DNA of 64,000 bases from the NCBI GenBank assembly GCA_951406725.2, contig OX597830.1, positions 67,890,001 to 67,954,000 on the forward strand, read 5' to 3'. Source of the DNA: Octopus vulgaris. Taxonomy: Eukaryota. The position numbers were made by a program, and so were the translations under genes. The notes under the pieces were generated by a model. The model was not told the origin of the DNA. It was given only the letters and a program-made list of their open reading frames with translations, and did not search any database. Every line of letters begins with the position of its first letter. Position 1 is the first letter of the stretch. Below are positions 3,195 to 58,827 of the stretch, one piece after another.

Positions 3195-3289
3195 CAAAGA
3201 ACAACATAGAAAATATGAGGCTCGGATTGGCATGGAACAAACCTGATGTTCTAAAACGTCTAATATCTGAAGGAGATATTCCCTGGGAA
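3195..3289 (+). CDS. TRPM-like exon, MHR3/MHR4 boundary (last exon of an upstream module)
   Basis: tattacag|...|gtaaga, 95 nt. Encodes [31 protein letters not shown], matching the TRPM L.LALAWNR.D...W motif. Confidence 0.85.
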
Positions 3290-6200
3290 GTAAGATAATA
3301 TCTTTTTTTATCACTTCATGTTGTGAACAATTATTAATTTAAAATTTTTTATCTTCTTGAGAGGATGAAGAGTAAAATGTTTTCAATAAAAATGTATTTT
3401 AAATATCGTTTTAATAATTTGAATGCTTGTAAAATAATTATTGCTTGTTTGTTAAATTTTTTCACTGGAGATAGTCGAAGGATCACTTTAGGCAGGAATA
3501 GCAAGTGGGAAATTTATGAACCTTGTGTATGTGTGTGTGCATACTTATTTGTCAGAATGTGTATGATGCTGCTGTGTACATCCATGTGCGTTTATCTCTG
3601 TCTGTCTGTCTCTCCCTATAAAAAAAAAACAAAAAAACTTAGATATGTTTCGACCAAAGATTGGTCCAGGCCATGTCTAACTTAATAGCACCACCTAATA
3701 GGATTATTCGAATCCTGTTTAAGTCAAGTTTTGTTCAAGTAGTGAGTTCTTGTTGGGTGAGTTGTATCCAGTTTTGTTCAAGTAGTGAGTTCTTGTTGGG
3801 TGAGTTGTATCCAATTATGGGTGGCTTATCTGGTATTCTTTGAAGGAATCTATCCAGACTCTGTTTAAAGTTGATGGGATCCTTTTCCTCTTTGATCTCT
3901 CTCGGGACAATGTTAAATAGGGCAGGGCCTGTTGAGGAAAAGAAATTATGTTGCAGTGTACATGTATGTTGTGATCTTGAATTTGGCAGGGGACGTATAG
4001 CCCGTGGTCCAAGTCTTGGATGAACCTTGAAGCTAATGTTTAGGTCGTTTGGGCAAAGTTGGCGGTATATTTTCCGCATCGTACAAATGATGTACCGCTC
4101 ACGGCGACGCTGGAGGGAGTAAAGTTTCAAGGCTTTAAGGCGATCCCAATAATCGAGAGCAGCCATGCCTTCAATTCGTTTAGTGAGTGCCCTCTGGGGT
4201 GACTCAATTCTGGAGATGTTTTGTCTTGTGTGAGGAGACCACAGTGGGCAGCAGTATTCAAGGTGTGGCCGTACAAAGGAGGAAAAAAGTGGTATGATGA
4301 CACCTTGTTCTCTGGACCGGAAAGTTCTTAAGATCCAGGAACTCATCCTACGAGCTATATCGACCTTCTTGTTGATGTGTGCACTCCAACTGAGATCGTC
4401 ATCAACAATTACACCCATGTCTCTGATATTGTTAGAGGCTGTGAGCGGTTCCCCTGAAGGAAGAGAGTATGGCTGTTTTAGTGAGGAGTTTCTTCCAAAA
4501 TGCATCAGCTCAAATTTTCCCTCGTTCAGTTGCATTTTGTTTCTGTCTGCCCATTGACTCACGGCATATAGATCAGACTGGAGTTGAGTTCGGTCTGCTT
4601 CTTCATTGACGATTTGCTTGAGCTTGGTGTCATCAGCAAATATTTTCACTTTGCAGTGATGTACGACACTGGAAAGGTCGTTTATGTAGATTATGAAGAG
4701 TAGCGGACCCAAGACAGTCCCCTGGGGGACACCGCTGGTGACTTTTGCTGGGCTTGAGTGGACTCCATCAACTACAACATGTTGTGTTCTATTCGCCAGG
4801 AAATACTTGATCCAGTGTAGAACTTTTCCACGGATTCCAACATTTGCCAATTTTGAGAGTAGGATATTATGGTCTACCCTGTCGAACGCTTTACTGAAGT
4901 CAAGATATATGACATCAGAGTTCGAACCTGTTCCCAAGGCTTTGAGTACATCTTCAATGTGATGTAAGAACTGTGTTAGACAGTCCCTGCCACAGCGAAA
5001 GCCATGCTGATTTGCATTTAGGAGTTTCTGGGTCTCCAGGAAGTCAGCCATCCTTGATCTTAACACTCTTTCAAACACTTTGATGATGTGGGAGGTGAGT
5101 GAGATTGGGCGATAGTTGAGTGCGAGGGATCTGTTTCCCTGTTTGAAAACCGGGATGACTGACTGGGATAGAAACTGTCTTGGTATATAACCTGCATCTA
5201 ACGAATTTCTCCAGAGGTTGGTCAGAGGGACTGCAAGTTGGTGTTTACATTCCTTCAGGAGACTAGCGGGGAATCTATCAGGGCCTACAGCAGAGTAGTA
5301 TTTGACCTCATTTATTGCTGCTACGATGTCAGTGGGAGTGAAGGTTATGTCTGCAATTTTGTGTTGGGAGTCAACTTCGTTCGTTTCTCTTACGTCAATA
5401 TCAGTGGGAACACTAAAGACAGAGCAGTATTGTTTCTGCAGTATTTCTGCCATTTCTTTAGCATCGTGTTGGGGAATGCCGTTAGCATCAATCAATGGCC
5501 CAATGGGTGAGACAGGGGTTCTATGCTTATTTGCATAGGAATAGAACACTTTTGGGTTCTGTTTGATGTTTTTGATTACCCACTGTTCCTCCGCAGCTCT
5601 TTGATTTTCAATGGAGGTTTTCATGTCGTTCTGCAGATGAAGTTTTTCCAGCTCTAGCCTTTTCATTGTTGTTGAACGTGGATGTTGTTTGTGGGAATAT
5701 TTTAATTGGTTGATTTTTTTGTTAAGTCTTTTGATGCGCCTGATGAGTGTTTTCTTCTTTTTAGGGAGCCGATTTCTGTTTGTGTTAGTAGATTTCGTGG
5801 GAGCGTGTTTAGACCATGTATATGTGACAATGTTTTCAAAGTGCTGCCATGCGGTCTCAATATGGGTGGAATTGAGAGTAAAAGACCAGTCGATGAAAGA
5901 CAGATCCTTTCTGATTGCTCCCCAGTCCGCTTTGTGGAAGTTTATGTTATCAAATGAGTGCCATGGAGTGGGATTGGCTGGTTTGGTTTTTATATGTCGG
6001 GAATTGAAATTGCAGAGTACCATGTCGTGATCTGAGAGGAGAGTTTTTTCAACTGAAATACTGTGAACGAAGCTAGAGTGATTGGTCAATACCAGATCCA
6101 AGATCGTTTTATTCTGTCTCGTTGGTTCGAGCACAAGCTGAGTCAGGAAGTATTCATCCATTAGATTAAAGAGCAGTTCCGCTGCTGCTCTATCTGATGT

Positions 6201-8428
6201 AGAGCACTTGCCTAACTTTAGTGTATTTGTGGGCCAGTTCACATGAGGGAGGTTAAAATCACCCATTACTAGTATGTTTCCGGAGTGGTACTTCCGAAGG
6301 AAGGACTTGACTTTGCTAAGGCACTCTTCAAAGCACTTTAAAGGTGCTTGGGGAGGCCTGTAAAGACCAACAATGACTATGTCCTTGGCCTTGCTGAATA
6401 GTGATACAGATTCACAATAGCCATTGGAAAATATGTCCTTGGCATCAAGTAAGAAGGAGTCATGGATAAAGATGGCTGTCCCTCCCTTATTTCGGTTTGT
6501 ACGATCCGCACGAACAATGGTAAAATCTTTTATTTTCACCTCGGCGTCTATATGGGTGTTGTTCAGGTGAGTCTCGGTAAGGATAAAGAAAGGGAAGCAA
6601 TGTGTCGTTTCGGCAAGCCAACTCTCTATATATGGGATCTTCCATTTTTGGGCAATAATTGATGGGTTGATGCCACGTACATTTAATAGGAATGTCGAGG
6701 TAAGTGAAGTTTGATGTTTGCATTGTTCTAAGTTGTTCAGTGGTAACAATGTGGGTAGTTCTTGTATGGAGCTGTGTGTGTATGATTTTCTTGTTGGTAG
6801 TGGGTGTGTGGTCCTTGTGATTTGCATAGGTGGTTGCTGATAGCTCGTTGGATCTCCTGGCTTAGGTCGGCCTTCATATTTTCTAGGTAAGTCAGTAAAA
6901 AAGAGAGTTACCACTTTGGTTTGCCACTTGGTCGGAGGATACATATTTCATGTTTGTGTTATTTGGTGTTATGGTTTTTTCATGGTTCCGTCTTCGTTGT
7001 TTGATTGTAGGAGGGGAAACGTGATTGTATGTTGCTTTAATTGTTGTCGAAGATCTCCTCTGTTGCTGTTTATATATATTTTGTGATCGTTTTGTGCCCT
7101 TCAGATGGTGGTGGTTGCATTCTGGGTTCAGGCACATCCTTAGTGACACAGAAGTTTGGCACAGTTTAGGATGAAAGAAGGTGCATCTATTGCCTTTTGT
7201 ACATCCATATTTGGGATCAGGACCATGGATTCTGTATTTAGGACAGTATTTGGGGTGGAGGTGAGGACAGTTTTTTCCCGTTATACCGTGTGGACAGATG
7301 CCCTTAACAAGTCTACGACATAGGGTGGGATGGGAAAAAGCACAGCGTCCCTTGTTGTTGTTGCCGCTGGGGCCAAATTTACAGTTGCCTTGAGCATAGT
7401 AAAGGCAGGGTGTTTGATATGGGTGTATGGGTGATTTTTCTATAGCAGAGTGTTGTTGTTGCTGTAGCAGCAGTGAAACTTGACTTGCAACAGCAGGGCT
7501 AGCAGGTGGAATCGGGTCAGGTACTGGTGATGTAGTAGCAGAGACAGGCTGTTGTGGTAGTGAGTCCTGTGGAGTGGGTGAAACTTGACTTTCAACAGCA
7601 GAGCTAGCAGGTGGAATCGGGTCAGGTACTGGTGATGTAGTAGCAGAAACAGGCTGTTGTGATAGTGAGTCCTGTGGAATGGGTGGAATGAGGTCAGATG
7701 TTTGTTGCTGGCTATCGAGTCGTTGAAGTGATCCCTGACCTGTTGGAGTTGGGTCATTTGGTGCACTACATTCATTGACAAGGATTGCTTTTAGTGTTGC
7801 CATGTGCGTGTGAATAATAGGAAATATTCTGACAATCTCTTTTGTTTTATTTTCTATCTGTTTTACAGATCTGTGAAAGGATTGCTTTGCTAATTTTTCA
7901 GCTATTTTACTGTAAACATTAGCTTCATTGTGGTGAGTGTACCAAGCGTTTATCATTGCAGTGATTTCATTTTCAACCCAGTGGCGTTTTTGAATATTAT
8001 CGGCCATATTCAGTGGGACAGTATTATACACTGTACGTTAGTTATTGATGAAAAGTTTGTGTCGATATATTCGGAAATGCGTGGCTATATCTGAGTGTGT
8101 GTGGGAGAGTTCAGTGTATATAGTACAAATCAGGATGAGCGCTGAGTTTAATACAGATCAAGGAAAAAGAATTGTACTCACGGGGCTAGTTTTAGAACTA
8201 GTCTTGGGTTTAGATTTGGTTTAAATTTCTTTCTCCAGGTTGTATATAAATTTGTATAAATTTATCCTCCGATGGTAGTAGAAGAGTAGAATAGTAGAAT
8301 TGAAGAATTCAAAAGTACTGGGACTAAAAACAATGAGAGTTTCTGCTGGCTTGAGTTGAAATATGCTTCTTTGGCTACTGACTTTCACCGGAGCTATAAA
8401 AAGTACGTCTTGTCAGGACGAATGCCTT

Positions 8429-8526
<98 letters not shown>

Positions 8527-8726
8527 CGGGAAGCTTTATGAAAATAAACAAAAGACGAAGGCAGGTGGAAAACAAACGAACAATTGTATTAGTATGGCGC
8601 TCAGGAAATATAAATAAAACAAGTCTTTAACGTTTCGAGCCTACGCTCTTCAACAGAAAGATACACAGAGAGAGAAAAACACAGAAAGAAGGAGAGAAAA
8701 AAAATGCGTGCAGTAGCTAACGATAC

Positions 8727-8786
<60 letters not shown>

Positions 8787-8957
8787 GGAGTATATATATA
8801 TATATACCGGAGTAAACACATAAATGTGAAACAAGGTGGAAAAAAGAGTAATCAAATACCAGTGGTAGATTAATATGCTTTATTTAAAGCAGCATAAAAT
8901 TCAACATAACCTGTTACTCTGAGTTTCCCGTTGCCGTTCATCGGACAGTTTTTGCTA

Positions 8958-9016
<59 letters not shown>

Positions 9017-11122
9017 CATACACACAATTATGTATCATCATTTAACTGCCATCTTCCTTGCTAACGTAGGTTGGACAATCCAATAGGATCAAAACATCTG
9101 GAGGACTGCGTTGAGCTCCAATGTCTACTTTAGCATGGTTTCTTTTTAGTGGGGGAAAAAGAGGAAAATAATCAGAATATAATATGAAAGTTGGATGGTA
9201 CTGACTTCATAAACAAAGGAAGAAAGTCTTTGAAGAATGTAGTTATAGTTGGACATTCCTTAGCCTCTTACATTGGAAGATAAACATCCAGTGAACTGAG
9301 ACACTGACCTAGTTTCAATTCCCAGTTTCAATTCCTTGTTTCAATTTCTGCTTGAAGGAAATTAAGAAGTTATCATAAATTTGTATTTCTCTTCCTATAA
9401 AATTGTTGTCACGTGCTTCATATAAAACAATGAATATGATAAATATTAAATATCATCATTATCAGTTAGACATCTGTCCTTCTGTGCTGACACATTGTTG
9501 CATAGGTCTATTCTATTGTATATCACAATTCCGTTGATCTTCCATAATTTTATTTGTTAAACCCTGCATTCTCATGTCACAGTTGACAATTTCTTCCAGT
9601 GACTCATCATTAATATTACTCTTCTCTGTATACCTCCATTATCTCAGTCAGATCTGTCAACGTATAAAATGCATCAAAGACAGAGCAAGGTTAACATTCG
9701 ATGACTTTGTTGGCTTTGACAGTGCCATATTCCTTTAAGTTCTATTCTATCATGAACGTATCGTATGGAATGAAAATTATGTTCTTGTAGAGATGAATAA
9801 TCAGAAACCTTATGGAATATTTGTTCCATTTCCAAAACTTAGCACTTGGAAATGTAGAATGTTTAGTGAATTCAAGTTAAAAAGTTACCCAGGTTGGAAG
9901 TGCAATATGCTTTCAAGGGGGGGTGGACTACAAAATATTAAATAAACAGAACTATTTAACTGTTCTTTGTATTCCTTTTCCCATTCATTTTAGTCATTTT
10001 TTAAAGATATATTAGAGCTATTCTCTTGTGTCTGGGGAGAGTCATTCTCTTTTAGTGCCTTATAATCTGACAAACTCACTGGTAAAATTTTCACTCATTT
10101 CCTTCTTTATTTTTCTAAAATTTTCACTGCGTCCTGCAACCTTTTCAATAGTTTATAATTATATCTTTGTAAGTCTGACATGGCTTATAAGTTTTACACA
10201 AATGATTAAACTGGTTAAGCAAAATTCTGTTATCATGATGTGGCACTGTTTCTATCCAGATTTCATTCATTACAGTCCAATGTCAAAACCAGTGTACCAT
10301 GCAAAAAATTGTAAATAAGACAAACTGAAATCATGTGTATCTGTATTAATAGTGATGAGATTATCTCCACCTGATAATCTTGGCTTTACTCGTGTCTTGT
10401 ACTGTTTATATGTCTTCTCTATAATTTGTTGTAAATTTTGAGATTCTCTGTTATAGAATTAATGTCAGATGTTGGAACTCCATCATTCCTTCAAACATTC
10501 AAATTAAAATTTTTTTTATTTTCAGGATGTAAAGAAATGGATTCAGGAAAACATAAAATTGAGGTAATTCAAGCAATAAGCTCATAATTCTGATAGAATA
10601 TAAGTACATGAGTAGAAGGATTTCAGTTATACTACATAGTGAGTTGAAAAACTTTGGTCAACCAAGATTATCCAAGTAACTAGTTGACAAAAACTTCTGG
10701 GGATGTCAGTAACCCCAAAACAACAAGCAATGAAGATAACTTAAAATTAATTGATTGTTGATTTATACATAAGTCTTTTCACATAATATATTGCAAATAT
10801 ACTAAGTTGCTACACTTCAAAAACTCTTACACCATTAGATCACTGGTGTTATTTATCAATAGCGGAAAAAAGTCAACAGAAGGCTCAAAAAAATTTGGTT
10901 GGCAAAATGAGAATTCATCATTTCTGTATACTTAATTCTTTTAAGACAGCTCTAGTATTAATAATTTTAACAATCAGACTCATTTCTTTTATTGGTGAAA
11001 GAAGTTAGAGTTTATGATATCGATTTCTTTCTCTGTTTTGTAAGGATCAGATTGCTGTAAATCAACTCAGTGGGAAATCCATAGTGTCTGCTAATGATAC
11101 TTCAAATTATACTCATGCATAC

Positions 11123-11160
<38 letters not shown>

Positions 11161-13676: not shown

Positions 13677-13713
<37 letters not shown>

Positions 13714-16700: not shown

Positions 16701-17202
16701 CCAAAATGATAACGATCACCAATTACCTCCCCTTAGAATTTTATACTTGTTGAATCATTCATTCATAAACTACACACACATAGATGAAGAAAATTTTCTT
16801 AAGAAAATACGTAATTAAAATAATTTTAATGTCATGATTAGCTAAAACGAAACCAGTCGACAAACAACATAAAATATATTTTAAAAAACTAAAACTATGT
16901 AAAGTGTGTGCATTTTCCTTCTTTAATTTCTTATATATATTACAGCTTACCACGTGAGGATAATTGAAATTCCACCCTTTCTGTTACTAAGTAAACACAC
17001 ACACACACACACACCCAAATATATATATATACACACATATATATATATATAGGCGCAGGAATTACTGTGTAATAAGTAGCTTGCTTATCAACCACATGGT
17101 TCCGGGTTCAGTCCCATTGCGAGGCACCTTGTTCAAGTATCTTCTGCTATGGCCTCGGGCCAAGCAAGGCCTGAAAGGAGCTTTGAAAGAAGCCTGTCGT
17201 AC

Positions 17203-17259
<57 letters not shown>

Positions 17260-21306: not shown

Positions 21307-21371
<65 letters not shown>

Positions 21372-26131: not shown

Positions 26132-26222
<91 letters not shown>

Positions 26223-32200: not shown

Positions 32201-34311
32201 AAGAAGTTCTTTGCAGTGGTCGGAGTAATATGGAGTACCTAAAACCTTTCCTAAACCTGAGCTCTTCAAAATGGTTATAGTGACTGTTTGGTGGTTCACT
32301 GCTGGAGTCATCCACTATAATTTCTTTAAACCCGGAAAAATCATTAACTTAGAAACATATTGCCATGAAATTGCCAAAATGAACAAAAAACTGCTACTCC
32401 TCCGTTCCAGACAGGGCAACAGAACAAGGCCAAACATTCTTCATGACAATGCTTTAATGATGCTCCAGAAGTTGAGGGAACTTGGCCACAAAGTTCTTTC
32501 CCACCTAGCATATTCCCTAATTGACAGATAAATTATCTGTCAATTACTCTGAAGTAAACTGGCTATATGAAAGAGTTATACTAGCTCCAACTAATGACAT
32601 GAGCTTCTTCAAAGTTAACAGATACATCAGAAATGACTTTTTGATCAATTGACAACAGTCGATCAAAATCAGGTCCTTCAATACTTGTTGAATTTTTGAA
32701 CACACTTAAATCCATTGGGATGCCACCGCATAGCTTGACATTAAAACTGGGTGCTCCCATTATGTTGCATAAGAATCTTGACCCATTTAGCCTGTGTAAT
32801 GGAACTCACTTAATTGTTACTTCCAAGAAGCCCCATGTCCTTCAGGCAACAATCATAACAGGTAGTCACAAAGAAGAAAATGTCCTTATTTCAAAAATTC
32901 CTCTCGTACCTACAGATGTTCCATTTGAATTTAAGAGGCTTCAGTTTCTAGTCAAACTAAGTTTTGGTATTTCAGTTAACAAATATCAGAGTCAATCCCT
33001 CAAAGTAGTTGGACTTGATCTCTCCACTACAAACTTCTCCCACGTCCAACCCTTTGTTACTCCCTTGCGAGTTGGAAGCAGCAATAATTTATTCATTTCA
33101 ACACCAACAAAAAATGGCACAGTGAATATTGTTTACCCTGAGGTGCTTCGGCATTGACAGATTTTCAGTTCAAAATTCTATTAACATTACAATTTGTATA
33201 TTTATTGTTTACTAATGTAAATAAGAAATGCAATAACCCAGACAACGTCGGTCATTCAGCTAGCATACACACGCACACACAAGCATGCACACACACACAT
33301 ACATATAAACACACGTATACATAATTATATATATACATGCCTTCATATATATGGATATTTATATATATATATAAATAAAATAAGAGGCTTCCAAAGAGGA
33401 AAGCCTTGTGCTAGAAAGAACAGTAGAAAAACTCAAATCACCAAATAAAGATAAATTCTTGAAAGGAATGAAAATTAAAACGTTTACCATCTCAATTATT
33501 TCCCAGGCCATGGTTTCTAACTATTTCCAGCAAAAAAATATTCACTGAAGGCCAGTTTTATCAGTGGGACAGCCTTTAGATTTCAAATATACACACAGCC
33601 AGTTCCACATGTAAAACTAACTGCCTGTATATCCTAACTTTCCAGATCACTGCGCAGACACAGATTATACCCGGCGACAGAGAGGATGCCGATAAAAATT
33701 TCGAACAAATTTCTCAAGGAATAAACATAATAAATATCAATAGGGTAATAAGAAATTATTATTACCAGTGGCCTAGCACAAAAACGAATTAGTCATTAGA
33801 CTATATATTATTCACATAGAAATATAATGTCGCCGGGTATAATCTGCGTCTGCGCAGTGGTCTGAAAAGTTAGGATGTACAGGCAGTTAGTTTTACATGT
33901 GGATCTGGCTGTGTGTATATTTGAAATCTAAAGGCTGTCCCACTGATGAAACTGGCCTTCAACAAATATTTTTTTGCTGGAAATAGTTAGAAACCATGGT
34001 CTGGGAAATAATTGAGATCGTAAACGTTTTTAATTTTCATTACTTTCGAGAATTTATCCTTATTTGGTGGTTTAAGTTGTTCTACTGCTCTTTCTAGCAC
34101 AAGGCTTTCCTCTTTGGAAGCCTCTTATTGTATTTCTATTGTATTTCAGAGGTAAGTGTTGGTCGAATATAGAGCGGAATTTGAAATTAAATGAAAGACA
34201 ATGGAGAGATTATGCATTCTCTTTACCTTGTCATTTATTTTTCAACACACTTTTTTATATACACTTATACATGTGTATATATGTAAGTGCATACGCATGT
34301 GTGTATGTGTG

Positions 34312-34351
<40 letters not shown>

Positions 34352-34930
34352 GCACATGTCTTAGTGGCTAAGTGCTTTGCGTATTTGACTCACAATCGTA
34401 AGGTTGTGAGATCGAGTCAGAGCAGCGCGTTGTGTCCTTGGACAAGATACTTTATTTCACGTTGATCCGGTCCACTCAGCTGATAAAAATGAGTTGTACT
34501 TGTAACACCTTGTCACATTGTGTGTTCTGCTTCATCTTCAAGAGAACAATGTTAGGGATGTGCGTGTCTGTGGAGTGCTCAGCCACTTGCACGTTAATTT
34601 CAAGACCATGCTGTTCTGTCGATCGGATCAACTTCTTATCGTATCCAACAGAGTGCCAGTTCTATAGGCATATATGTGTTTGTGCGTGTGTGTGAGTGCA
34701 TTCATATATGTATGTATATGTATATGCATATATGAATCTATATATCTGTGGAATGGTGTATGAATGTATGTGTGTGTATGGGAGGCGTGATTATGCATCT
34801 GTATAGCAATTCATTAGAGTTCCTCTTTCTAATGTCTGGGAACATCAAAATCTCCCCCACCAACACTTTCAGTATAACTCAATTTATATTCTGATACTCT
34901 CTCTCTTTTTATCCCCTTTCTCTTTTTCCA

Positions 34931-34996
<66 letters not shown>

Positions 34997-37900: not shown

Positions 37901-40900
37901 TCACTTTTATTTCCTGGCTTTGAATATATAATTTAATGAGGCAGGGGGAAAGAAATATTTACATGACGCAATTCGATTACTATTACACGAGGCTCGACGC
38001 TCTCAATCAACAGCTTACAGTGACTTGCTTCTATGAACTCATCAGTTGTCTATTTAATAGAAATGTGTCAGTCTACTTTTAGTCGCATGGAGATGGTTGG
38101 AAACCTTCCACAACAGAAGAGATAGATTAACTGTAGATTGAGTAATATACGAGATAAATTAATTTAATTCAGGGAGAAATTAATGTTGTCATGTGTGTAT
38201 TTGCAAAAAATACGTATTTATACAAATGTGAACGGAACCTGAGGAAAAGGAAGTAAAGACGTGTGACAAAAGACGGGAAAATGACCTTCAGAGATAATGA
38301 GTTTCACAGAGGAGATTGGCAAAAAACTGAAATGTTTGGTAATATGGGGTTGAGAAGATCAGTCCATCTGGGTGAAATTGGGATAAAATTGAGGCCTTAA
38401 AGTGATGTTGTTTATGTCTATACCTCTGCATATGATCTGTGTCCCTGATGAATCTCTCCCCTGCAAAATATCTTCCTATACCCCACTCTCTCTCTATCCA
38501 TGTTCACCTCCCACTGTATTTCCTGCCTCTCCATCTTCTACTCACCTTTCACACTCTCACACACCTACCTACTCACCCTGTCCAGTCCTCCGTACCACTT
38601 CCCATATATACACCTCCCTGTAATTTGAGGGAATACCCCAACACATCCTCACCCACTTCTCCTCTCTGTTTCCACCAGGGGTAGCCATATATCTCCTCTT
38701 CTGCAACATGCCTGTTTCTGGTTCTTTATTCATGCTCTAACTTATCACCTGGCACAAAGCCACCTCACTCAATATCAATCACTCCCCCTCAGTTGAAGTG
38801 TCTTCTTTTCCAAGTTACTCGGTCACCTCTCTGGTGTTGGGGCCACATAAAAAGCATCCAGTAAACTCTGTAAAGTGGTTGGTATTAAGAGCATTCAGCA
38901 GTATAAACCATGCCAAAGCAAATAGTAGAGCTTGGCATGGTCTTCTGGCTTGCAGTTCCTCTCAAACCATCCAACCCATACCAGCATGGAGGGAGGACAT
39001 TAAATGATGTTGGTATAGACAACGACGATGTTGATGATGGTGATTATGATACTAATTTATGTTTTCTAAAACCTGCTGCTAAAATTTATAGTTTAGTCTA
39101 GTTATACTTTATACATTAGTCAAATATATTTCATAATATTTTACACCTAAATCAAGTTATACTTTATATCTGAATCAGAGATGTTGTGTACCTTAATCAA
39201 GTATTCATTACACCTTGATCATGTTATACTTCATGCTTTAAAAGGTATATATTTTTAATTAAATCACGTATGTTTTTCATTCAGTAATCGGGTGTATGTT
39301 TTACCCTAATCAGGTATATTTTATAAATTAACCAGATATATTTTGTATATTAATTGAGTTATATTTTTCTGTATATACTTTCCCGACAGAAACCACGATT
39401 CCAGCTGTTGCAGTAATGGTTGGAGAGGAACTTGAAACTCTGAAGTCAGCCTATGATTCACTATCTCGCAACATCCCTGTTATAATAGTAAAGGTCAGTA
39501 AATAGACTATTATCTAAATAAGGTTACTGGAGGTTTTTCCATTTATAATGTTTACATATCTAAAGACGTTTGTGGTTAGGAAAAATAAACGGAAGAACTA
39601 TGTATTTTGTTGGTGCAGAATTTTATATAAATATCAAGCTGAATAAAAAGTAAGCAACGCTTTGAAACATGAAATTCAGGACAATATAGTTCAACAACGG
39701 GGAAATTTAAGTACCATTACAATCAACACATTTTACCAATGACTTACAAGTTTATTTATTCTGATAACATAAAAAAAACTTAAAGATGATGAACTCTTTG
39801 AAAGCATTTACAACATCGGTTTGATTTTGGAACTCCTTCTTTCGTATGAAATCATCAAGGTTTTTGAAAAAGTGGCAGTCGGTTGAAGAAAGGTCTGGGG
39901 AATAAGCTGGCTGGGGAAGAACTTTGTAGCCATGTTTCCTTAACTTCTGGAGCATCATTAGTGAAAAGTCTGATCGATCATTGCCATGAAGAATGACTGG
40001 CCCTCTTCTGCTGACCAGTCTGGGATGGATGAGTAGCAGTTTTTCATTCATTTTGGAAATTTCATGGCAATATGTTTCTGCAGTAATAGTTTTTCTAGGT
40101 TTGAGGAAGTTATGGTGGATGAGTCCAGCAGTACACCACCAAACAATCACCGTAGCCATCTTTTTGAAGAGCTTGGGTTTAGGGAAGGCTTTCAGTGCTC
40201 TATTTTAGTCCAGTCACTGCGAAGAACGTTTTTTATTATTGTACAGAATCCACTTTTCATCGCAAGTTAAAAAATGGTCGAAAATGAAGCCGTTTGGTTA
40301 CGGAGAAGAAGCGAGAAACAAATTCAATAGCTGTGCATTTTCTGATTTTCATTCAAATTGTGTGGCACCCATTTGCTGAGCTTCATTGATTTTCCAATCG
40401 CATGCAAATGGTTGCAGGTAGTTTTCTGGCTAACTTGAAGTTCTTTTGCCAGTTCTCGAGTGGTTTTACGTATCTTTCTCAATGACAGTCATTAATTGAG
40501 TGTTATCGATGACAGATGGGCGTCCACTATGCTCACGATTTTCAAGGCTCAGATTTCCACTGCGAGATCGTTTAAACCCTTTTCAAGCTGACCTCTATAT
40601 TTGTCATTTCTTCACCAAATGTTTCGTTGTCATCGTGAACAGTTTCAGCTGCTTTACGTCTTTTTTTTATGATGAATAACAAACTTGCTTGAATATCGCG
40701 TTTTGACAATTCCATTTCAGTTGATTGTAACATTTTCTTTATTGCCCACAGGGGGCCAAACATAGAGGGGACGATACAAATGACAGAGGGGTCGATAAAA
40801 CGAATGTTTTTTCAAAAAATTTTAATAGTTAAAAATTTAAGTTAAAGATTTCGTTTCGACCCCGCAAGCCCTATGCCACCACTGTAACCTTTCGTATAAC

Positions 40901-43900
40901 CTTATAGATATACTATGCGGATTCATTCTTCTCAACAAACTAAGCCTTCCATCTTCCATATACATCAGGTGGTAAATGAGGACATTAACCAGTCCAAGGC
41001 TGGCGAGGAAGATGCCAGTCATGATTCCTTTCACGTGGGTCTTCCATACCACTTCTTTCGCTATAGTGACCACAGTGAGGAAACAAACCTTACCTTGTTT
41101 TAAAAGATGAAGGACGAACATTCTTTACAATCGATTCGGAAGACAGTTGTACTCTTCTCAGCCTTCACAGCAGGTGTTCAACGTAAACCCATATTTCGGA
41201 AATTTTGGGGCATTGCACAATTGCATGCAGAATGGTTTCCCTGTCCTGCTCGCATCTTGGGCACATGGGTGAACAAGGGACATCATATCTTGCGTGTTTA
41301 TCAGGAAATGGTAAGGCTCCTCGGTAACTGCCATGCCAGGCCAGGGGTCCTTGGAAGTTACCCAGGGGTCCTGGCCCGATTGTCCTTCGGAACAGGCCGG
41401 CTAGTTGACCATTATCAAAGCCTAGAGTCTTGTCCAGGATGTCGTCACACTGATCCTCTACCAACCCTCTATAGAAAGATGAGGTGGAATTCCCGACACT
41501 GGCATTGCTCGTGTGACAGAGAAGCTTGAGTGTCTCACGACACTCCGCTTGCCATGCACCCCACTTAATCCAAGGCCCTAGTTCACTCAAACTAGTAAGC
41601 TCAGGAAGTAACGACCGAATGAATGAAGACCGCGCTTGTTCACCATCAAGGTAGAGCCACAGATGTCTCAGTGCATGTCTGCGCATCAATAGCTAAGGCC
41701 TAGCCCACCCTTTAGCAGGTACTGGCAGCAGGCAGAGCGCTTTACAAGAGGACTTCTACCCTCCCACAAAAAGTGGAAAAGCAGCCTCGAACGGGGGCAC
41801 GGCACGACGGTTAGGCGGTATGTAATCCCAAGGGTGATAAACACTCTTGCAACTTCCGCCCTTCCTTTCAGTGATACCCACCGCTCAGACCAGGTCTGAG
41901 TTCGATGGATCACCCTGCTTGTCACCTCACACCAATTCTTCCTTTGTCGATATCTTTATTTTATATTCTACTACTGACATTTATTGTGTTTCTTTGTCGA
42001 TAAATTTACTTTATATTGTCACATATCATCTCTAAAGAATTGTTTCTAGAACAATTTAGTTCCATCTCATACCAAAACAACAGTTGACTCTATCTATTTT
42101 ACTCTTGTTTCCACAACCTAGGCCTGATGGTGTCACTGTATATCATCCCTGGATGCGTTACAGCTAAGTTCACATTAAATTCATAAAGGAGACATCTTTA
42201 TTGGTTGTATGTGTGTATTGTTTAGAATTTCTCAAAATATTTGTTCAATACTAAATTACTAAATTAAATCCAAGATTTAATTTTAATGAATTCTTTAAAT
42301 TTTTCCTTTTAATTAACAGGGTTCTGGTAAAGCAGCAGACATTATGGCAGATGTTTATGAAGCACTACTCAAGAAAGATGAAGAGGGCAAAGACATAACT
42401 GAAAGGTTTGTTCTTAATTTGGATAGAATGATAATTTTGTTCATTTGGATGGAATGATAATTTTGTTATTGCTGTTGTTTTTTCTGTTTCTGTTGTTATT
42501 AAAATGTGGTCTTTTGGCACGTATTAGTCCTCATAAAAAGAAACCCTGAATATAAGTAATCCAGCCTTTACTATCTTGTGTATCTAACAACACAACCTTA
42601 TCCTGCAGTATCTGTCTCCATTTAAGCTGAAGGGGTGTGATTAGAGAGGGATATAACTTATATTTTTGATAGGTTGAGTGACAAGGTAATTTGCTCCCAC
42701 ATTGGCTTGCAACTCACCTATTATTAGGTTGGTGCATTATTATTGTGGCTTTTTTCAATAAATTTTATTTAACAAAAACAATAAAAACATTTAACAAATA
42801 ACATCTTTAAATGATTATTCCAACCGGCTGCCAAGCAAATGGGAAGCAGTAATTTAAGTAGATGGTGAATATGCTCTGGAATAATCATTTAAAGATGTTT
42901 TTGTTAAATGTTGTTATTGTTTTTGTTGAATAAAATTCATTGAAAAAAGCCGCAATAATTATGCACCAACCTAATACTACAGTTGATAGTTTGATTTTAG
43001 AGCTGGTATTCATAGCTTTGAGGATATTCATAGCTTTGACTGAAACTGATGACTCATCAGATTTCTGTTACACAATACTCAAATTTAAGGCAGTATGACA
43101 TGACACTGCTAATAATCAAGGCTCCATATTTGCTGGGGAATGATAGTGGATAAAGTTGAGGACATGCCTGGAGGTGTTTGGATTTCTTCTCTATTTCTTT
43201 TTCTATCCAATTTAAGGGATCAGATCAAGCAGTATCATGACTTACCCTTATGAAACAACACTAAAGCATATTGATAGAACTGGTTAATATGAATTAATCT
43301 GGTATGGGTTTAACCAATTCTGGGCCCACTGTCTCTGGTTGTTAACTTAATTCAAACACTGAAGTACCTGGTGGTGGTTCAACAGGACCACTTGGTCCTT
43401 CACAAACTTTAACAGAATCCACAACATTGCAAGCATTCAGGCCAGATTATCAGTGTGGAAATAAAATGATGTCTTGATTCACAGCATTTTCAATTCATGG
43501 CATCACTATTTACTAACAGATTGATGCTAAATGGTTCTCCAAAAGAGGCCTACCACCATATATGACAGAAATACTCTGAATAACATCTGTAGAGATAACT
43601 CCTATTTCTTGTCAGGCCTACCCACACTATAACTTTCAAGTTAACTATTTACAGGATCCAAGAATTGATTAACAACAACCCATGAGTTGGGGTTTATCCA
43701 AGAATTTCCCTCACCAATCTTCGATATCCTGTAAAGATTATGTGTTGTGCTCTTCCTCCTTTAATCAAGCTCCATTCCATCAAGAGGAACGTCCATCAGC
43801 TAACATCATTCATCATCTGTGTCACTAACAGAGTAACCTGGCTAACATTAATTCTAGTTAACATATCTTGCTAGTGACATCAGTGTAGACCTTATATTAT

Positions 43901-45837
43901 TCTCTAAATGTAATTTTCCTTGAATCACCATTACATGTTTTATATAATATTTTTTGAAACAACTTTTTTCCTAGATCAATACTAGAGCAACTGAAAGCTG
44001 ATATTAAAAAACAACAGGGAGCAAATGACTTGGTTGATTGTGTGTTTGATTCCATGAAACATCTAGATTTGATAACTGTATGTAATATACAATCACCAGA
44101 AGACTTTGATGTCGCAATCATGAAAGCTGTGTTCAAAGGTAAGAAATAATTTTAAAATTGAATTTTCGTTCTTTTCTTTTTCACATTTTCCAGTGAGTTT
44201 GACTTTCATTGAATATGTTCCTAACTTAGATTAATTATTATTAATTAAACCAATTATTAGACATGCCAAAAAGTTAAGAGCTATTTTTAGCATAAAATAT
44301 TAAAAATCTAAATTAGGGTGAAATGTACAAGGAAAGAATAATAGTTAATGACTAATGTTATTATTTTTATATCTTTCACCAAGTTTTTGGATGTTAATCT
44401 TGGAATGTTGAAGCTTAATTGAGCTTCATCAATAAGAAATCATATGGCTGTATTAATAAATTTTCTGGAGAAGTTTCTGGAATGTGAGGGAATGGTATGT
44501 TATCATTAGCATTGTACTTTGTCTGTGATGAAGACCTTTAACTCACAAATTCCCCTTTTCTATATTACTGTAAATAGGCACTAAATAGTAAAAGGAGTAT
44601 ACTTCTGAAATTGTTAACCCAATGAATATTTTCCAGAAGAAATTGTCATTTAAATGATATACAAACTAGAGATAAGATGGGGTCTAGAGTCGGAACAACA
44701 GAAGCTTATGGAAAGGTGACTGTTACTGCTCTTTAGTAATAGCATCAAACTCACTGGTTTTATGAGACTTTGTGAAGACCGTGGAAATATAATAGTTAGA
44801 TGTTAAAATATTAAGTATTAATTATGGAATAATTATGAATTAACTGCTAATATATTCAACATTTAATCACATCAGTTATTACAAAAAGCAATTTGCAGCA
44901 AAACATATTGCACTTTTTCCCCTCAAAATGGTTTTCATAATATCTAAGTAGCATTGCTGTGTCGCCAAAAATTCAGACAGTTTTATTAATTATCGAAAAT
45001 GGCACAACAACAAAATAGGAGAACCCATTGCAAAATTTAAGGGATCTAATAAACAAATGTACATTCACAGACTTGAAGTTCTTGAAGAATCAGATACGGT
45101 TGTACTGTCATTTTGGAAGATATGGTCCACAATATGTGTATTTCTGTATGTGTGCATGTGTATGTGTGTGTGAGTGTACACATATACACTCACACAAACA
45201 CACATACATACAAACACACACACATGCATATATACATATTTATGCATGTACACACATCTATGATCTTCGAAGCCTCGCAGAAGCAATGACTAGTGACTGA
45301 GACCTTCGGTGATATGCTGTGCTTGAGATGACTCGACAAGCCAAGGGAATTCCCAGTTGTGGCCGTTGTGGTGTCATGTAAATTGCACCCATGAAATTGT
45401 TATCGTGGCCGTTGCCAATAGCATGATCTTCGTATGTCAAACCTCACAGAAATAAAGGAGCCAGTAATGAAGCATGGGCCTCAGGGAGGCATGGACAAGC
45501 AACCTACAACATGGCGATATGCTGTGCTTAAGAAAACTCATCAAACCAACTGAATCAGTAGTCATGGCCTTTGCCAGTGTTATGTAAATGGCACCTGTAA
45601 AATCGTAGTCATGGCCGTTACCGGTGTCGAGTACATCACACCCGTCCTAGTGACATGCAAAACGCACCCATTACACTCTTGGAAGTGGTTAGCATTAGGA
45701 AGAGCATCCAGCTGTGGAAACCATTCCAAATAAAACAGGAAGCTGCTACAGATCTCTGGCTTACCAGTTGCAGTAAAATCGTCTAACCCATGCCAGCATG
45801 GAAAGTGAACATTAGATGATGATGATGATGATGATAT

Positions 45838-45891
<54 letters not shown>

Positions 45892-47178
45892 CAAAGGAAT
45901 TCCAACTCTGTCTGTTTTTTACGTTTTACTTATATTCTTTATAATATTAATGTAGAATATAGAATACATAGTATAAATAGTATATATAGTAAAATGAAAT
46001 GAAGTATTGATTGTCTTATTGAATAGATGAAATACTGAACATCAAATATTAAGGGACTAGTATACTTTCTTGCATTTAAGCAGTTTTCAAGGTCCCAGGT
46101 TGTGACAGGAATGTTTCAACTGTACTTGACTGTCTGTCTTTTGTTCTTTATATACGTTCCTGTGGACAGCAGTAGTAGTTGCTTGGCTATTTTTAGAGAT
46201 GATGCCAAACCATTTTTCAGTGTTTATTCTTAGAAATGATGGCAGCAGAACTTTTTAGGGATTTTTATTTTTTAGGTATAGGAATAAGATTTTTAAACCT
46301 TAAATAAGATTAATTTAATCCTTGTTTATTAAGCTTCGGTTTGAATTTATTAATTTTCTCTCAGTTTTCTCTCGATTTTGTTCAGATTGTATAGTTTATG
46401 AAATGGAAATATCCTAAATGTTTTCCGACCACATGTTGCCAGATGGTTACGCAGTGGTATCTGACGGACTTCTGGATTTTTAATTTGTTGTCGATGCATA
46501 CGCGAGCGTTCTGATAGTGCATTGCCTGTCTGGCCAACGTACAGTTCTTCACAATTTGGGCATTTGATGCAGTAGATTAAATTTCTGCTTTTGCAGTTCA
46601 TGTTCACGTTTGAGAATATTTTCCCTGTTTTTGTGTTCATACATGGGCCAGTATGAATTAATTGGCATGTACCACATCAGCTATCATTGCATTTAGACAC
46701 AGTGAATGGTTGATCTTTGTTGCTAAGGTCAAACCTTGCCTTAGTTAATAACTTTTTCAAACTTTTAGGCTGTCTCTTGCTGAGAGTTATAGTTTGATCT
46801 GTAATGATATTTCTCAATTCCTTACTTTATGCAATGATTGGTAGGTTTGCTTTAGCGATATTGAAGATGTTCTAGTGGCATGGATTGTGTGTCACTATAA
46901 ATGGTATGATTTGTTCTTGTTTTTCTCTTCTTTGTGGTGTCCTCAGTTGTTGTATGGGTATTTTCATAGCCTGCTGAATACCATTTTCTATAAGTAGTTT
47001 TGTTTGAGCAGAAATTCTTTCAGTTCCATCAGGCACTGATTTTGAATATCGACTGATGGTTTATTTTAAAATCTATATTAAAGGAAGAAAAGAATTGAAA
47101 GAAGTCACGCTTACATCGAAGAGAAAAAGAATTGACAGTCTACTAAATAACGTATTTTCAGACGGAACTCAGTGGCAA
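3195..47178 (+). CDS. Partial multi-exon TRPM-like cation channel gene, N-terminal MHR/SLOG region: join(3195-3289,10526-10563,14342-14426,21087-21267,30329-30492,35103-35262,39390-39493,42320-42405,43975-44138,47084-47178). No start codon, transmembrane exons or stop codon were found in the window.
   Basis: All ten exons are bounded by AG/GT, intron phases are compatible (0,2,0,1,0,1,0,2,1) and the joined frame has no stops. TRPM motifs appear in family order: [32 protein letters not shown]...[52 protein letters not shown]. Confidence 0.88.
3735..6944 (-). CDS. LINE ORF2: AP endonuclease + reverse transcriptase
   Basis: LNVRG, LTETHL, YRPP, MGDFNLP, LDLVL, LSDH (APE); [25 protein letters not shown] (RT); VRPHLEY. 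Confidence 0.95.
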   Translation of the reverse strand: MYPPTKWQTKVVTLFFTDLPRKYEGRPKPGDPTSYQQPPMQITRTTHPLPTRKSYTHSSIQELPTLLPLNNLEQCKHQTSLTSTFLLNVRGINPSIIAQKWKIPYIESWLAETTHCFPFFILTETHLNNTHIDAEVKIKDFTIVRADRTNRNKGGTAIFIHDSFLLDAKDIFSNGYCESVSLFSKAKDIVIVGLYRPPQAPLKCFEECLSKVKSFLRKYHSGNILVMGDFNLPHVNWPTNTLKLGKCSTSDRAAAELLFNLMDEYFLTQLVLEPTRQNKTILDLVLTNHSSFVHSISVEKTLLSDHDMVLCNFNSRHIKTKPANPTPWHSFDNINFHKADWGAIRKDLSFIDWSFTLNSTHIETAWQHFENIVTYTWSKHAPTKSTNTNRNRLPKKKKTLIRRIKRLNKKINQLKYSHKQHPRSTTMKRLELEKLHLQNDMKTSIENQRAAEEQWVIKNIKQNPKVFYSYANKHRTPVSPIGPLIDANGIPQHDAKEMAEILQKQYCSVFSVPTDIDVRETNEVDSQHKIADITFTPTDIVAAINEVKYYSAVGPDRFPASLLKECKHQLAVPLTNLWRNSLDAGYIPRQFLSQSVIPVFKQGNRSLALNYRPISLTSHIIKVFERVLRSRMADFLETQKLLNANQHGFRCGRDCLTQFLHHIEDVLKALGTGSNSDVIYLDFSKAFDRVDHNILLSKLANVGIRGKVLHWIKYFLANRTQHVVVDGVHSSPAKVTSGVPQGTVLGPLLFIIYINDLSSVVHHCKVKIFADDTKLKQIVNEEADRTQLQSDLYAVSQWADRNKMQLNEGKFELMHFGRNSSLKQPYSLPSGEPLTASNNIRDMGVIVDDDLSWSAHINKKVDIARRMSSWILRTFRSREQGVIIPLFSSFVRPHLEYCCPLWSPHTRQNISRIESPQRALTKRIEGMAALDYWDRLKALKLYSLQRRRERYIICTMRKIYRQLCPNDLNISFKVHPRLGPRAIRPLPNSRSQHTCTLQHNFFSSTGPALFNIVPREIKEEKDPINFKQSLDRFLQRIPDKPPIIGYNSPNKNSLLEQNWIQLTQQELTT
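6892..8007 (-). CDS. LINE ORF1: Myb/SANT-like domain, Pro/Gln/Ser linker with 35-aa repeat, four CCCH zinc fingers. Probably ends at 6737 once a 1-nt indel is corrected.
   Basis: [15 protein letters not shown]...VYSKIAEKL...RSVKQIENK; four C..C..C-x3-H units; first ATG at 8007. Confidence 0.85.
   Translation of the reverse strand: MADNIQKRHWVENEITAMINAWYTHHNEANVYSKIAEKLAKQSFHRSVKQIENKTKEIVRIFPIIHTHMATLKAILVNECSAPNDPTPTGQGSLQRLDSQQQTSDLIPPIPQDSLSQQPVSATTSPVPDPIPPASSAVESQVSPTPQDSLPQQPVSATTSPVPDPIPPASPAVASQVSLLLQQQQHSAIEKSPIHPYQTPCLYYAQGNCKFGPSGNNNKGRCAFSHPTLCRRLVKGICPHGITGKNCPHLHPKYCPKYRIHGPDPKYGCTKGNRCTFFHPKLCQTSVSLRMCLNPECNHHHLKGTKRSQNIYKQQQRRSSTTIKATYNHVSPPTIKQRRRNHEKTITPNNTNMKYVSSDQVANQSGNSLFY
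7474..7686 (-). repeat. 105-bp in-frame tandem duplication in ORF1
   Basis: [30 protein letters not shown] occurs twice. Confidence 0.9.
8623..8661 (-). ncRNA. Minimal hammerhead ribozyme-like motif (variant core)
   Basis: Reverse complement: TCTTT CTGTTGA A GAGC GTAG GCTC GAAACGTT AAAGA. Palindromic AACGTT stem III as in Penelope-type minimal hammerheads. Confidence 0.55.
8911..8948 (-). ncRNA. Minimal type I hammerhead ribozyme-like motif (variant core)
   Basis: Reverse complement: CTGT CCGATGA ACG GCAA CGG GAA ACT CAG AGT A ACAG. Stem I CTGT/ACAG, GUA site. Confidence 0.55.
10526..10563 (+). CDS. TRPM-like micro-exon, start of MHR1
   Basis: Strong acceptor ttttttattttcag and donor gtaatt, 38 nt. 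Encodes [12 protein letters not shown](R), resembling the TRPM2/7 N-terminal WI..NI/F.KR segment. Phase fits both neighbours. Confidence 0.75.
11371..11590 (+). mobile_element. SINE, second family
   Basis: tRNA-like head followed by a ggtcgactttgcctttcatccttt...taagtaccag core. Degenerate relatives near 12770-12860 (-), 13040-13140 (-) and 29990-30070 (+). Confidence 0.65.
14342..14426 (+). CDS. TRPM-like exon, MHR1
   Basis: ttgatag|...|gtaatt. Encodes [28 protein letters not shown] (TRPM PTDAFG.I.F motif). Confidence 0.9.
17051..17165 (+). mobile_element. tRNA-derived SINE head, same family as 2740-3143
   Basis: aagtagcttgctt...ccacatggttccgggttcagtccca. Confidence 0.7.
17780..20735 (+). 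mobile_element. Degenerate RTE-like LINE
   Basis: GC-richer block with broken RT motifs (LYIAFIDLK...DTVD near 19690, RQGC near 19878) and many stops. Confidence 0.7.
21087..21267 (+). CDS. TRPM-like exon, MHR1/2 (SLOG)
   Basis: catatag|...|gtaaaa. Encodes [60 protein letters not shown]. Confidence 0.93.
21385..21582 (+). repeat. Second copy of the 342-545 repeat
   Basis: Direct sequence match; sits after (ACT)n(AAT)n. Confidence 0.75.
22828..25258 (+). mobile_element. R4/Dong-like non-LTR retrotransposon, degenerate and internally deleted
   Basis: [39 protein letters not shown] and [15 protein letters not shown] motifs, then a jump near 24950 to the endonuclease tail ([22 protein letters not shown]); (TAA)n tail. 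Confidence 0.8.
25259..26130 (+). mobile_element. Two short 5'-truncated R4/Dong-like 3' ends
   Basis: [17 protein letters not shown] and [15 protein letters not shown] (restriction-like endonuclease), each bounded by (TAA)n. Confidence 0.7.
26225..27945 (+). mobile_element. Another R4/Dong-like element, degenerate RT region
   Basis: [40 protein letters not shown]. Confidence 0.75.
27946..28490 (-). mobile_element. RTE-like AP endonuclease fragment
   Basis: STLNVG, CCIQEVR, AYAPQ, VGDFN.H.G, GFGSRN.E. Confidence 0.75.
30329..30492 (+). CDS. TRPM-like exon, MHR1/2 (SLOG)
   Basis: ttttgcag|...|gtaaat. Encodes (D)[54 protein letters not shown]. Confidence 0.93.
31566..32520 (+). mobile_element. 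Degenerate mariner transposon
   Basis: KAAETA.DINETF, VPHDL, VTVWW...GVIHYNF and ILHDNA motifs with stops; related to 39640-40735. Confidence 0.8.
32540..33263 (+). mobile_element. Helitron 3' fragment (PIF1-type helicase C-terminus, ORF 32696-33157)
   Basis: [32 protein letters not shown]...[15 protein letters not shown]. Ends in a small GC hairpin plus CTAG. Confidence 0.85.
33501..33569 (-). ncRNA. Mutated inverted copy of the hammerhead
   Basis: Core reads CTGATAA and the site reads GCC; probably inactive. Confidence 0.6.
33938..34006 (+). ncRNA. Type I hammerhead ribozyme
   Basis: TCCCA CTGATGA [AACTG...TAGTT] A GAA AC CATG GT C TGGGA. Intact core, GUC cleavage site after 34001, palindromic loop III. 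Confidence 0.8.
34349..34665 (+). mobile_element. Probable tRNA-derived SINE
   Basis: Degenerate A/B-box head (cttagtggctaag...gagatcgagtc) followed by tgtgtccttggacaagatacttt. Confidence 0.55.
35103..35262 (+). CDS. TRPM-like exon, MHR2
   Basis: tttccag|...|gtaagt. Encodes [53 protein letters not shown]. Confidence 0.95.
36054..37010 (-). mobile_element. RTE-like retroelement 3' region with internal ~66-bp tandem array (36234-36536) and (GAT)n tail
   Basis: 36600-37010 matches 51590-51840 in reverse. The terminal segment ctttccatgctggcatg recurs at 38840-39030, 45660-45835 and 9035-9140. Confidence 0.7.
37050..37900 (-). mobile_element. Degenerate Ty3/Gypsy-like gag fragment
   Basis: EEFSY.P.....F...[11 protein letters not shown]; ILTKLE segment shared with 49400-50530. 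Confidence 0.6.
39390..39493 (+). CDS. TRPM-like exon, MHR2/3
   Basis: ttcccgacag|...|gtcagt. Encodes (K)[34 protein letters not shown]. Confidence 0.9.
39640..40735 (-). mobile_element. Degenerate mariner transposon
   Basis: KAAETV.D.NETFG, WVPH.L, EKWILY, VWW...[18 protein letters not shown]. Confidence 0.85.
40850..41930 (-). mobile_element. L1/Tx1-like LINE ORF2 C-terminal fragment
   Basis: W..R.VSLKGR, FLW.G, GGLG, CPRC....[10 protein letters not shown] zinc motif. Related fragment at 48300-49110. Confidence 0.75.
42320..42405 (+). CDS. TRPM-like exon, MHR3
   Basis: ttaacag|...|gtttgt. Encodes [28 protein letters not shown] (TRPM GSGRAAD motif). Confidence 0.9.
42724..42974. mobile_element. 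Mariner-derived MITE
   Basis: Ends TTAGGTTGGTGCA...TGCACCAACCTAA with flanking TA and extended palindromic arms. Confidence 0.88.
43975..44138 (+). CDS. TRPM-like exon, MHR3
   Basis: ttttcctag|...|gtaaga. Encodes [54 protein letters not shown]. Confidence 0.88.
46290..47030 (-). mobile_element. Penelope-like element 3' fragment (GIY-YIG endonuclease)
   Basis: [25 protein letters not shown]...R...H. Confidence 0.8.
47084..47178 (+). CDS. TRPM-like exon, diverged paralogue of exon 3195-3289
   Basis: aatctatattaaag|...|gtaaga, 95 nt, same length and phase as 3195-3289. Encodes [31 protein letters not shown]. Flanking introns are homologous to those of 3195-3289. Confidence 0.75.
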
Positions 47179-58375: not shown

Positions 58376-58827
58376 ATAATATATATATATATATTTATAA
58401 ATGATTGCCATCTGTTCGTGACCAAGGAAGATCATTGTTGACCTTCAGGAACATTGTGCGCTCTAGGACAAACTTTTATTTTGCATTTACAGTTCGTTGG
58501 TGGCACAAGAGCCTTGCTCTTGTAAGTATATATGACTGCAAACATTGCAAACCAACCTTTCCGCATTCACTACGCTAGCAATACGCTTTTGAGCAGCGTG
58601 TTTAAATTCTTCATGAAGAATACGTACCCTTTCTAAAGAGAGGTTATATGGAGAACTTGTTAGTGGAAAGAGACCCTGACAGAAACCAAGGCTGCGATTT
58701 AAGGACTCTGTCAAGTCCTCATTAAAGGCTTGTGATATGCAGGAGACCAACTGGGTGAGCAATGCCTGTCATCGCCACAGATGGAGGAGACAGGTTAAGG
58801 AGGGTGTCGATACCTTTGATAGAGCAC

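Follow-up and report, generated by a model that had tools for sequence, protein, structure and literature searches.

Tandem MHR1-3 modules ahead of a predicted pore half in a probable βTRPM gene of Octopus

In the text of PMC13143021 available to us, all TRPM members are described with MHR1/2, MHR3 and MHR4 in a single set. The accessible part of PMC8145809 likewise gives a single MHR1-4 set and includes the first two linker helices in MHR3, a definition that by our reading matches the unit repeated in the Octopus gene described here. In human TRPM2, as set out in the portion of PMC6759353 that was consulted, ADP-ribose is held in the MHR1/2 cleft via Y295, R302 and R358, the ADP-ribose-driven change is relayed through MHR3/4 to the pore, and Ca2+ is liganded by E843, Q846, N869, D872 and E1073. 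The best PDB matches to the Octopus gene are Nematostella 6CO7 and human TRPM2 6MIX (E values of 1e-104 to 1e-102). With βTRPM/TRPM2-like channels the gene shares SLOG/MHR1-2, MHR3, MHR4, the six-helix pore, the TRP helix, the coiled coil and the Ca2+-site positions. Instead of the single MHR1-4 set of a βTRPM, however, it has four or five MHR1-3 units ahead of one MHR4, and it further differs in a 136-aa acidic linker and in giving no NUDT9-H match.

No multi-SLOG TRPM was found in the literature titles and opening parts of abstracts that the search covered, with subscription papers and preprint supplements outside its scope. Repeated MHRs are also unmentioned in the available text of 2026 surveys of TRPMs and of cephalopod TRPs, one of which names a fragment of the gene an ordinary TRPMβ (O. 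bimaculoides XP_052830018 is TRPMβ in PMC13143021, Table S1). The main text of PMC13402157, in the part available, mentions neither SLOG, MHR nor a repeat, and the accessible text of bioRxiv 10.64898/2026.06.15.732245 describes variable choanoflagellate TRPMs without repeated SLOG domains. According to the available methods text of PMC7306681, sequences without six membrane helices were removed, so that front-half models of the kind discussed below would drop out.

Layout of the gene from module A to the pore half

The window analysed here, a stretch of 64,000 nt of Octopus vulgaris DNA (C17:67,890,001-67,954,000), is free of N, and one of its exons is up to 100% identical to O. vulgaris predicted proteins. 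It contains module C of a probable βTRPM gene of Octopus with the order A-B-C-D-acidic linker-E-MHR4-S1-S6-TRP-coiled coil, in which we name successive repeat units, each consisting of MHR1-3 (SLOG plus helical), A to E. The initial annotation had described nine exons that rebuild MHR1-3 after an upstream LAWN exon, and recomputation agreed with it: the nine exons (Table 1) sum to 1,077 nt (359 aa), are stop-free and have AG/GT ends throughout, while the LAWN exon, B9, ends in phase 0 and lies 43,889 bp from C9. The annotation gave C1 as lacking an ATG; the sole ATG of this exon is out of frame and followed immediately by TAA. The view of C9 as a second LAWN-position exon held for homology, as C9 and B9 have equal length and phase and 59% ungapped identity with flanks (shuffle control, n = 2,000: mean 29 ± 4%, maximum 45%), but the LAWN motif itself has been lost. 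PF18139 (SLOG/LSDAT) matches exons C3-C5. The initial annotation missed the 26-nt micro-exon that carries the frame on toward module D.

Table 1. Features located in the window (positions counted from its first nucleotide)
Feature	Position	Strand	Phase	Description
Exon B9	3195..3289	+	1->0	LAWN helices, MHR3 end; last exon of upstream A/B module; seven copies on C17
LINE ORF2	3735..6947	-		1,070 codons; endonuclease and reverse transcriptase
LINE ORF1	6892..8037	-		381 codons; Myb/SANT-like
Exon C1	10526..10563	+	0->2	WIQENIK, MHR1 start
Exon C2	14342..14426	+	2->0	
Exon C3	21087..21267	+	0->1	SLOG, LSDAT positions 3-66
Exon C4	30329..30492	+	1->0	SLOG
Exon C5	35103..35262	+	0->1	SLOG, DPNHTHF; S and K at human TRPM2 Y295 and R302 positions
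Exon C6	39390..39493	+	1->0	SLOG end
Exon C7	42320..42405	+	0->2	K at R358 position
Exon C8	43975..44138	+	2->1	MHR3 helices; 9 nonsynonymous and 0 synonymous changes vs 79-Mb copy
Exon C9	47084..47178	+	1->0	LAWN-position exon without the motif
Micro-exon (26 nt)	53263..53288	+	0->2	First of two C-to-D joiners; also in gene models of O. sinensis and O. bimaculoides
Retroelement-like fragment	2061..2636	+		No Pfam match
PIF1 helicase 2B fragment	32645..33157	+		In C4-C5 intron; probably a Helitron remnant
Retroelement-like fragment	41165..41692	-		zf-RVT match
Open frame (324 codons)	57470..58444	-		No Pfam match; probably transposon-derived
Retroelement-like fragment	63416..63973	+		RT-like translation

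The 7.2-kb gap between B9 and C1 had been ascribed mostly to a LINE, and such an element is indeed present in antisense orientation (3735..8037, minus strand), with two open frames. In two paralogues the B9-C1 intron measures 2,072 and 2,066 nt, and that of the window consists of the homologous intron plus approximately 5.2 kb. Among the three copies compared the LINE is found in the window copy alone, and its insertion looks recent. Further fragments of transposon or retroelement type are scattered through the window (Table 1).

Onward from module C come two micro-exons (26 and 28 nt, the second 1.2 kb beyond the window end), module D, ten linker micro-exons and E1-E2. From B6 to E2 the window copy has 36 exons, all with AG/GT ends and compatible phases, which give 1,089 stop-free codons. 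The D-E linker, with 30 D/E among its residues, is encoded by the ten in-phase micro-exons, which hold the frame in two copies; a transposon origin for the acidic stretch of the gene models is ruled out, as the stretch maps to these exons. The linker micro-exons (C17:68,040,630-68,074,590) alternate between phases 0->2 and 2->0. Around the odd-numbered ones the flanking sequence is similar to that of module exon 1, and the linker appears to consist of tandem exon 1/2 pairs that have decayed. The window copy ends at a 100-N gap at C17:68,083,022, about 5 kb short of where comparison with a paralogue places E3.

No MHR4 or transmembrane exon had been noted at the outset, and tblastn likewise gave no match to either in the window, against 32 in the positive-control paralogue; nor was MHR4 or pore similarity detected by this search across 67.81-68.114 Mb. 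The gene nevertheless extends beyond the limits first given to it and probably has a pore. A paralogue at C17:79.25-79.62 Mb (minus strand) runs A/B-C-D-linker-E-MHR4-S1-S6-TRP-coiled coil, with A and B fused as one module, and is colinear from A3 to the coiled coil; the stretches read at this locus are N-free and leave out 79.580-79.595 Mb and exons A1-A2. The predicted protein P0014 from the same locus has two LSDAT matches followed by TRPM2-like and Ion_trans (PF00520) matches. It contains no NUDIX family and ends in the coiled coil, its last exon being undelimited on the genome. Of the alternatives offered initially, a multi-SLOG channel or a pore-less poly-SLOG protein, the channel therefore fits better, and a pore-less family was rejected on the basis of P0014 and the 79-Mb locus.

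PF25508 (MHR4) follows module E at 79.3, 67.6 and 56.9 Mb, the window copy being cut earlier by the gap. Pore exons could be read from s1 to t2 at 79 Mb and from s1 to s6 at 67.6 Mb, where the pore half is open in all compared exons from E3 to s6 (E6 in part); between MHR4 and S1, one small exon that was expected could not be found in the 67.6-Mb pore half. The pore halves at 67.6 and 56.9 Mb were considered as continuations of the window copy and rejected, as they have their own linker and E1-E2 and overlap it at 95-99% rather than 100% identity. Summed exon lengths predict a subunit of about 2,800 aa with five modules and of about 2,400 aa with four.

That the modules are stacked in one reading frame, as first proposed, is supported by their matching phases and by public gene models, although their number is four to five rather than two. 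The models checked number 21 and are not independent, several being isoforms or re-annotations of one gene. Among them the B9-C1 junction is found in 10, C9-micro-exon-D1 in 4, D6-D7 in 2, D7-D8 in 1, D9-linker in 5, linker-E1 in 6 and E9-MHR4 in 5, and each of the nine junction patterns tested, those with the 26- and 28-nt micro-exons among them, is covered by overlapping models. Of nine related proteins scanned, eight have two to four stretches matched by PF18139. No model covers the whole gene, and none of five matches is an annotated Octopus protein longer than 1,731 aa. In O. bimaculoides, XP_052830016/17 span A to D6, and the consecutive accessions XP_052830018-21, annotated on a contig of equal length, span D8 or the linker through E-MHR4 to S2. 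XP_036366207 (O. sinensis, P0004) joins C1-3 to D4-9, which could reflect either the in-register loss of another module or splicing past one module length.

Such partial models could mean that each locus yields two products, a soluble pore-less poly-SLOG chain (A-D, ended by intronic polyadenylation) and an ordinary channel with a single module (from E onward, transcribed from an internal promoter). XP_036366249 and XP_052830016, with four LSDAT matches and no channel, would represent the first product and the channel isoform XP_052830021, which begins inside the linker, the second; the absence of a full-length model also agrees with this. We consider this arrangement unlikely, and hold the same doubt about a poly-SLOG chain acting in trans as ligand buffer or regulator. 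The junctions from D to the linker, E and the pore are crossed by XP_052830018-20 (D8-D9-linker-E-MHR4), XP_036366207 (D6-D7-D8-D9-linker) and CAI9735657 (D to pore), and the ten linker micro-exons keep the frame in both copies. Two RefSeq front-half models that end via intron read-through at D4 or D6 count against a single channel, as does the start of XP_052830021 inside the linker, although ends that fall exactly at read-through donors are a common sign of truncated annotation. Annotation pipelines seldom call exons of 26-40 nt without transcript alignments. A single predicted channel transcript that joins at least two modules to the pore is likely.

Relatives, copies and selection

In a tree of 45 rows, all modules A-E fall into a single clade (99/98). 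Within it, O. bimaculoides and O. vulgaris/sinensis cluster by module type, at 99-100 for each type, and the same was obtained with 20 rows; partial matches shorter than 200 aa were left out of these trees. As the module types group across species, the repeat predates the split of O. bimaculoides and O. vulgaris/sinensis. Identity between modules is 43-60%. The sister rows of A-E are two single-module Octopus TRPMs (clade 100/100), and the modules group with two Octopus proteins named TRPMβ in Table S1 of PMC13143021, in a tree without labelled αTRPM/TRPS references. The single-module βTRPMs XP_014781149 and XP_014774531 are 50-56% identical per module to A-E and, unlike the A-E gene, have one module and keep LxWNR and R302/R358.

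A search of 1.84 billion representatives returned few other multi-SLOG proteins among the best 150 of 2,118 matches, and the best matches in the ESM Atlas (0.84-0.88) were to SLOG clusters only. Four multi-SLOG relatives were checked: a two-unit jellyfish model, the two-unit XP_072049890-2, and models from oyster and sturgeon, of which the last two look like fused or unverified predictions. Sanderia malayensis P0026 and XP_072049890-2 (P0027/P0171) resemble the Octopus gene in having more than one LSDAT ahead of the membrane part. However, they are predicted models with two units that arose by independent duplication (each pair forms its own clade, with long branches flagged), and the Sanderia repeat, unlike the Octopus unit, includes MHR4-like sequence. 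Duplication of SLOG may be recurrent across animals. Judged from sequence, the architecture described here is a new variant of a probable βTRPM and is conserved across Octopus.

The genome scan with PF18139 gave 106 matches from 114 candidates, mostly in multi-module arrays on C17. Exon B9 is present in seven copies (92-100% identity) and the related A9 in three (together 10 of 41 matches, the rest being a short flanking repeat). For the pore half a DNA search with the S3-S4 pore exon was used, since the PF00520 genome scan is insensitive to short exons (two weak matches beside E copies); it returned five copies (96-100%) and two distant ones (7 of 24 matches). C17 therefore carries seven front halves versus five pore exons, an imbalance that counts against the single-channel reading. 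Intron divergence among copies is approximately 2-5%, and the copies are accordingly read as paralogues rather than alleles. One module order is common to seven copies and to three species. By exon positions, four of the seven front halves are A/B-fused and three have both A and B. The 67.4-Mb copy keeps A and B as separate modules with all of their 18 exons, and C1-C2 come next, whereas the window copy has A1-5 joined to B6-9; the breakpoint of this crossover lies in homologous intron sequence near 67,854,000. Modules have thus been lost via in-register crossover.

Codon changes between the window and 79-Mb copies were counted over 38 exons (A5 and A1-A2 left out), pairwise and uncorrected. 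The exons differ at 178 of 3,782 sites and the flanks at 225 of 10,536 (2.1%, one misaligned flank included); between these copies, exons change faster than introns. There were 151.8 nonsynonymous changes at 2,794.5 sites (pN 0.054) against 18.2 synonymous changes at 745.5 sites (pS 0.024), which gives an overall pN/pS of 2.2 (p = 1.9e-4). For exons 7-9 (MHR3 helices), a grouping picked after viewing the per-exon divergence, the counts were 92.3/849 (0.109) and 6.7/222 (0.030), with a ratio of 3.6 (p = 1e-4). Neither the SLOG exons 1-6 (ratio 1.3, p = 0.25) nor the linker (ratio 1.5) deviated significantly in this comparison. D7-D9 hold most of the signal, and B7-B9 plus C7-C9 alone show 31 nonsynonymous and no synonymous changes. 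Among three D8 exons, 17-23% of nonsynonymous sites differ, with flanks differing by 2-3%. Between the window and 67.4-Mb copies, B6-C2 gave 25.5 nonsynonymous and 0.5 synonymous changes. In the pore half, MHR4 has a weaker nonsynonymous excess (p = 0.04) and the membrane exons have none, pN being about equal to pS. Amino-acid change is in excess in the helical exons.

Gaps of 100 N interrupt the 67.4-Mb copy (two), the window copy and the 44.5-Mb copy. Between D6 and D7 of the 67.4-Mb copy lies a reversed, gap-bounded contig with linker end, E and pore (C17:67,565,374-67,695,502), likely as a scaffolding error. Single-base deletions that break the frame occur in each of the three long copies examined, count against an intact single channel and number six: one in A5 of the window copy, one in A4 of the 67.4-Mb copy, and four in the 79-Mb copy (two in A4, one in C6 and one in an MHR4 exon). 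No nonsense substitutions were found in the compared exons of these copies. Deletions of this kind alone are what consensus error in long reads typically leaves in near-identical repeats, and the six may stem from such error or from real decay. The deletion in A5 upstream of the window, the LINE in the B9-C1 intron and a pore half that is unattached in the assembly might otherwise suggest that the family is real and the window copy a recently dead segmental duplicate. This is doubtful, as all six lesions resemble consensus error, the break in the copy is an assembly gap, and the changes in B7-B9 and C7-C9 relative to the 79-Mb copy are exclusively nonsynonymous.

Binding residues and predicted role of the module array

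At the positions of human TRPM2 Y295/R302/R358, module A has F/R/P (F/R/R in O. bimaculoides), B a gap/R/R, C S/K/K, D L, P or S/R/G, and E S/R/Q. F/R/R is kept solely by A of O. bimaculoides, and the pore-proximal module E lacks two of the three residues that contact ADP-ribose. In the window copy, the A/B chimera unites F and R of A with R of B. The initial suggestion of an ADP-ribose sensor can be kept only in part, since part of the binding residues is missing from most modules. In the pore half the Ca2+-site positions N869, D872 and E1073 are aligned and kept, and EEIHQ is assigned to E843/Q846 by position, beyond the printed alignment. The pore filter reads YAELF in both multi-module copies (C17:79,271,074-79,271,250 and 67,577,502-67,577,678) and YGELF in single-module relatives, a difference that could alter ion selectivity.

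With at least one of the three ADP-ribose contact residues lost in most modules and a long acidic linker between D and E, the extra modules of one long channel might have a mechanical or structural role (tether or spring), or a chemosensory one, rather than a role in defence. The ankyrin spring of NOMPC is an analogue for the mechanical case. We regard this as improbable, since a structural spacer would be expected to show neither pN/pS above 1 nor a set of three highly divergent D8 variants in copies whose introns are approximately 97% identical. Chemosensory diversification is conceivable. An artefact in the form of tandem truncated paralogues, or of a mis-assembly juxtaposing unrelated N termini, is largely refuted and very improbable: the cluster is gap-broken, with the reversed pore-half contig inside another copy and a gap in the 44.5-Mb copy, but the shared module order, the B9-C1 intron of approximately 2.07 kb in two paralogues, the N-free window and the 2-5% intron distance between copies all speak against it.

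On present evidence we favour, with some reserve, a predicted channel of approximately 2,400-2,800 residues with one MHR4-pore half behind four or five MHR1-3 modules, the extra modules likely serving as a diversifying sensor array. It would be a Ca2+-gated cation channel, with module E and MHR4 forming its usual cytosolic cage and modules A-D hanging from that cage on the acidic linker. Through their variable helical surfaces and changed nucleotide clefts, A-D would recognise ligands of foreign or stress origin, or decoy pathogen effectors, and such binding would tune or trigger opening. Taken together, gene clustering, unit shuffling and helical-exon selection would fit best with a host-pathogen sensor or decoy. 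Given a single channel transcript, the selection pattern tips the balance slightly toward a function as sensor or decoy in biological conflict.

Repeat-array and integrated-decoy immune receptors offer an analogy only: they too have clustered paralogues, unit numbers changed by unequal crossover and selection on helical surfaces, but no domain is shared with the Octopus gene. It is tempting, if speculative, to see these expanding, positively selected giant TRPMs as variable immune receptors in which a recombination-shuffled SLOG chain sits on a calcium pore. Equally tentative is the corollary that such an immune-sensor channel would reuse the SLOG nucleotide-sensing fold of biological-conflict systems.

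If the subunit does have five modules, as many as 20 SLOG clefts would lie beneath a single pore, and the series of one-, four- and five-module genes would provide a natural test of how MHR1/2 binding reaches the gate. As the gene is split in every annotation examined, octopus expression data could be re-mapped at once. The strong selection seen in the helical exons suggests a ligand or antagonist in octopus biology that drives it.
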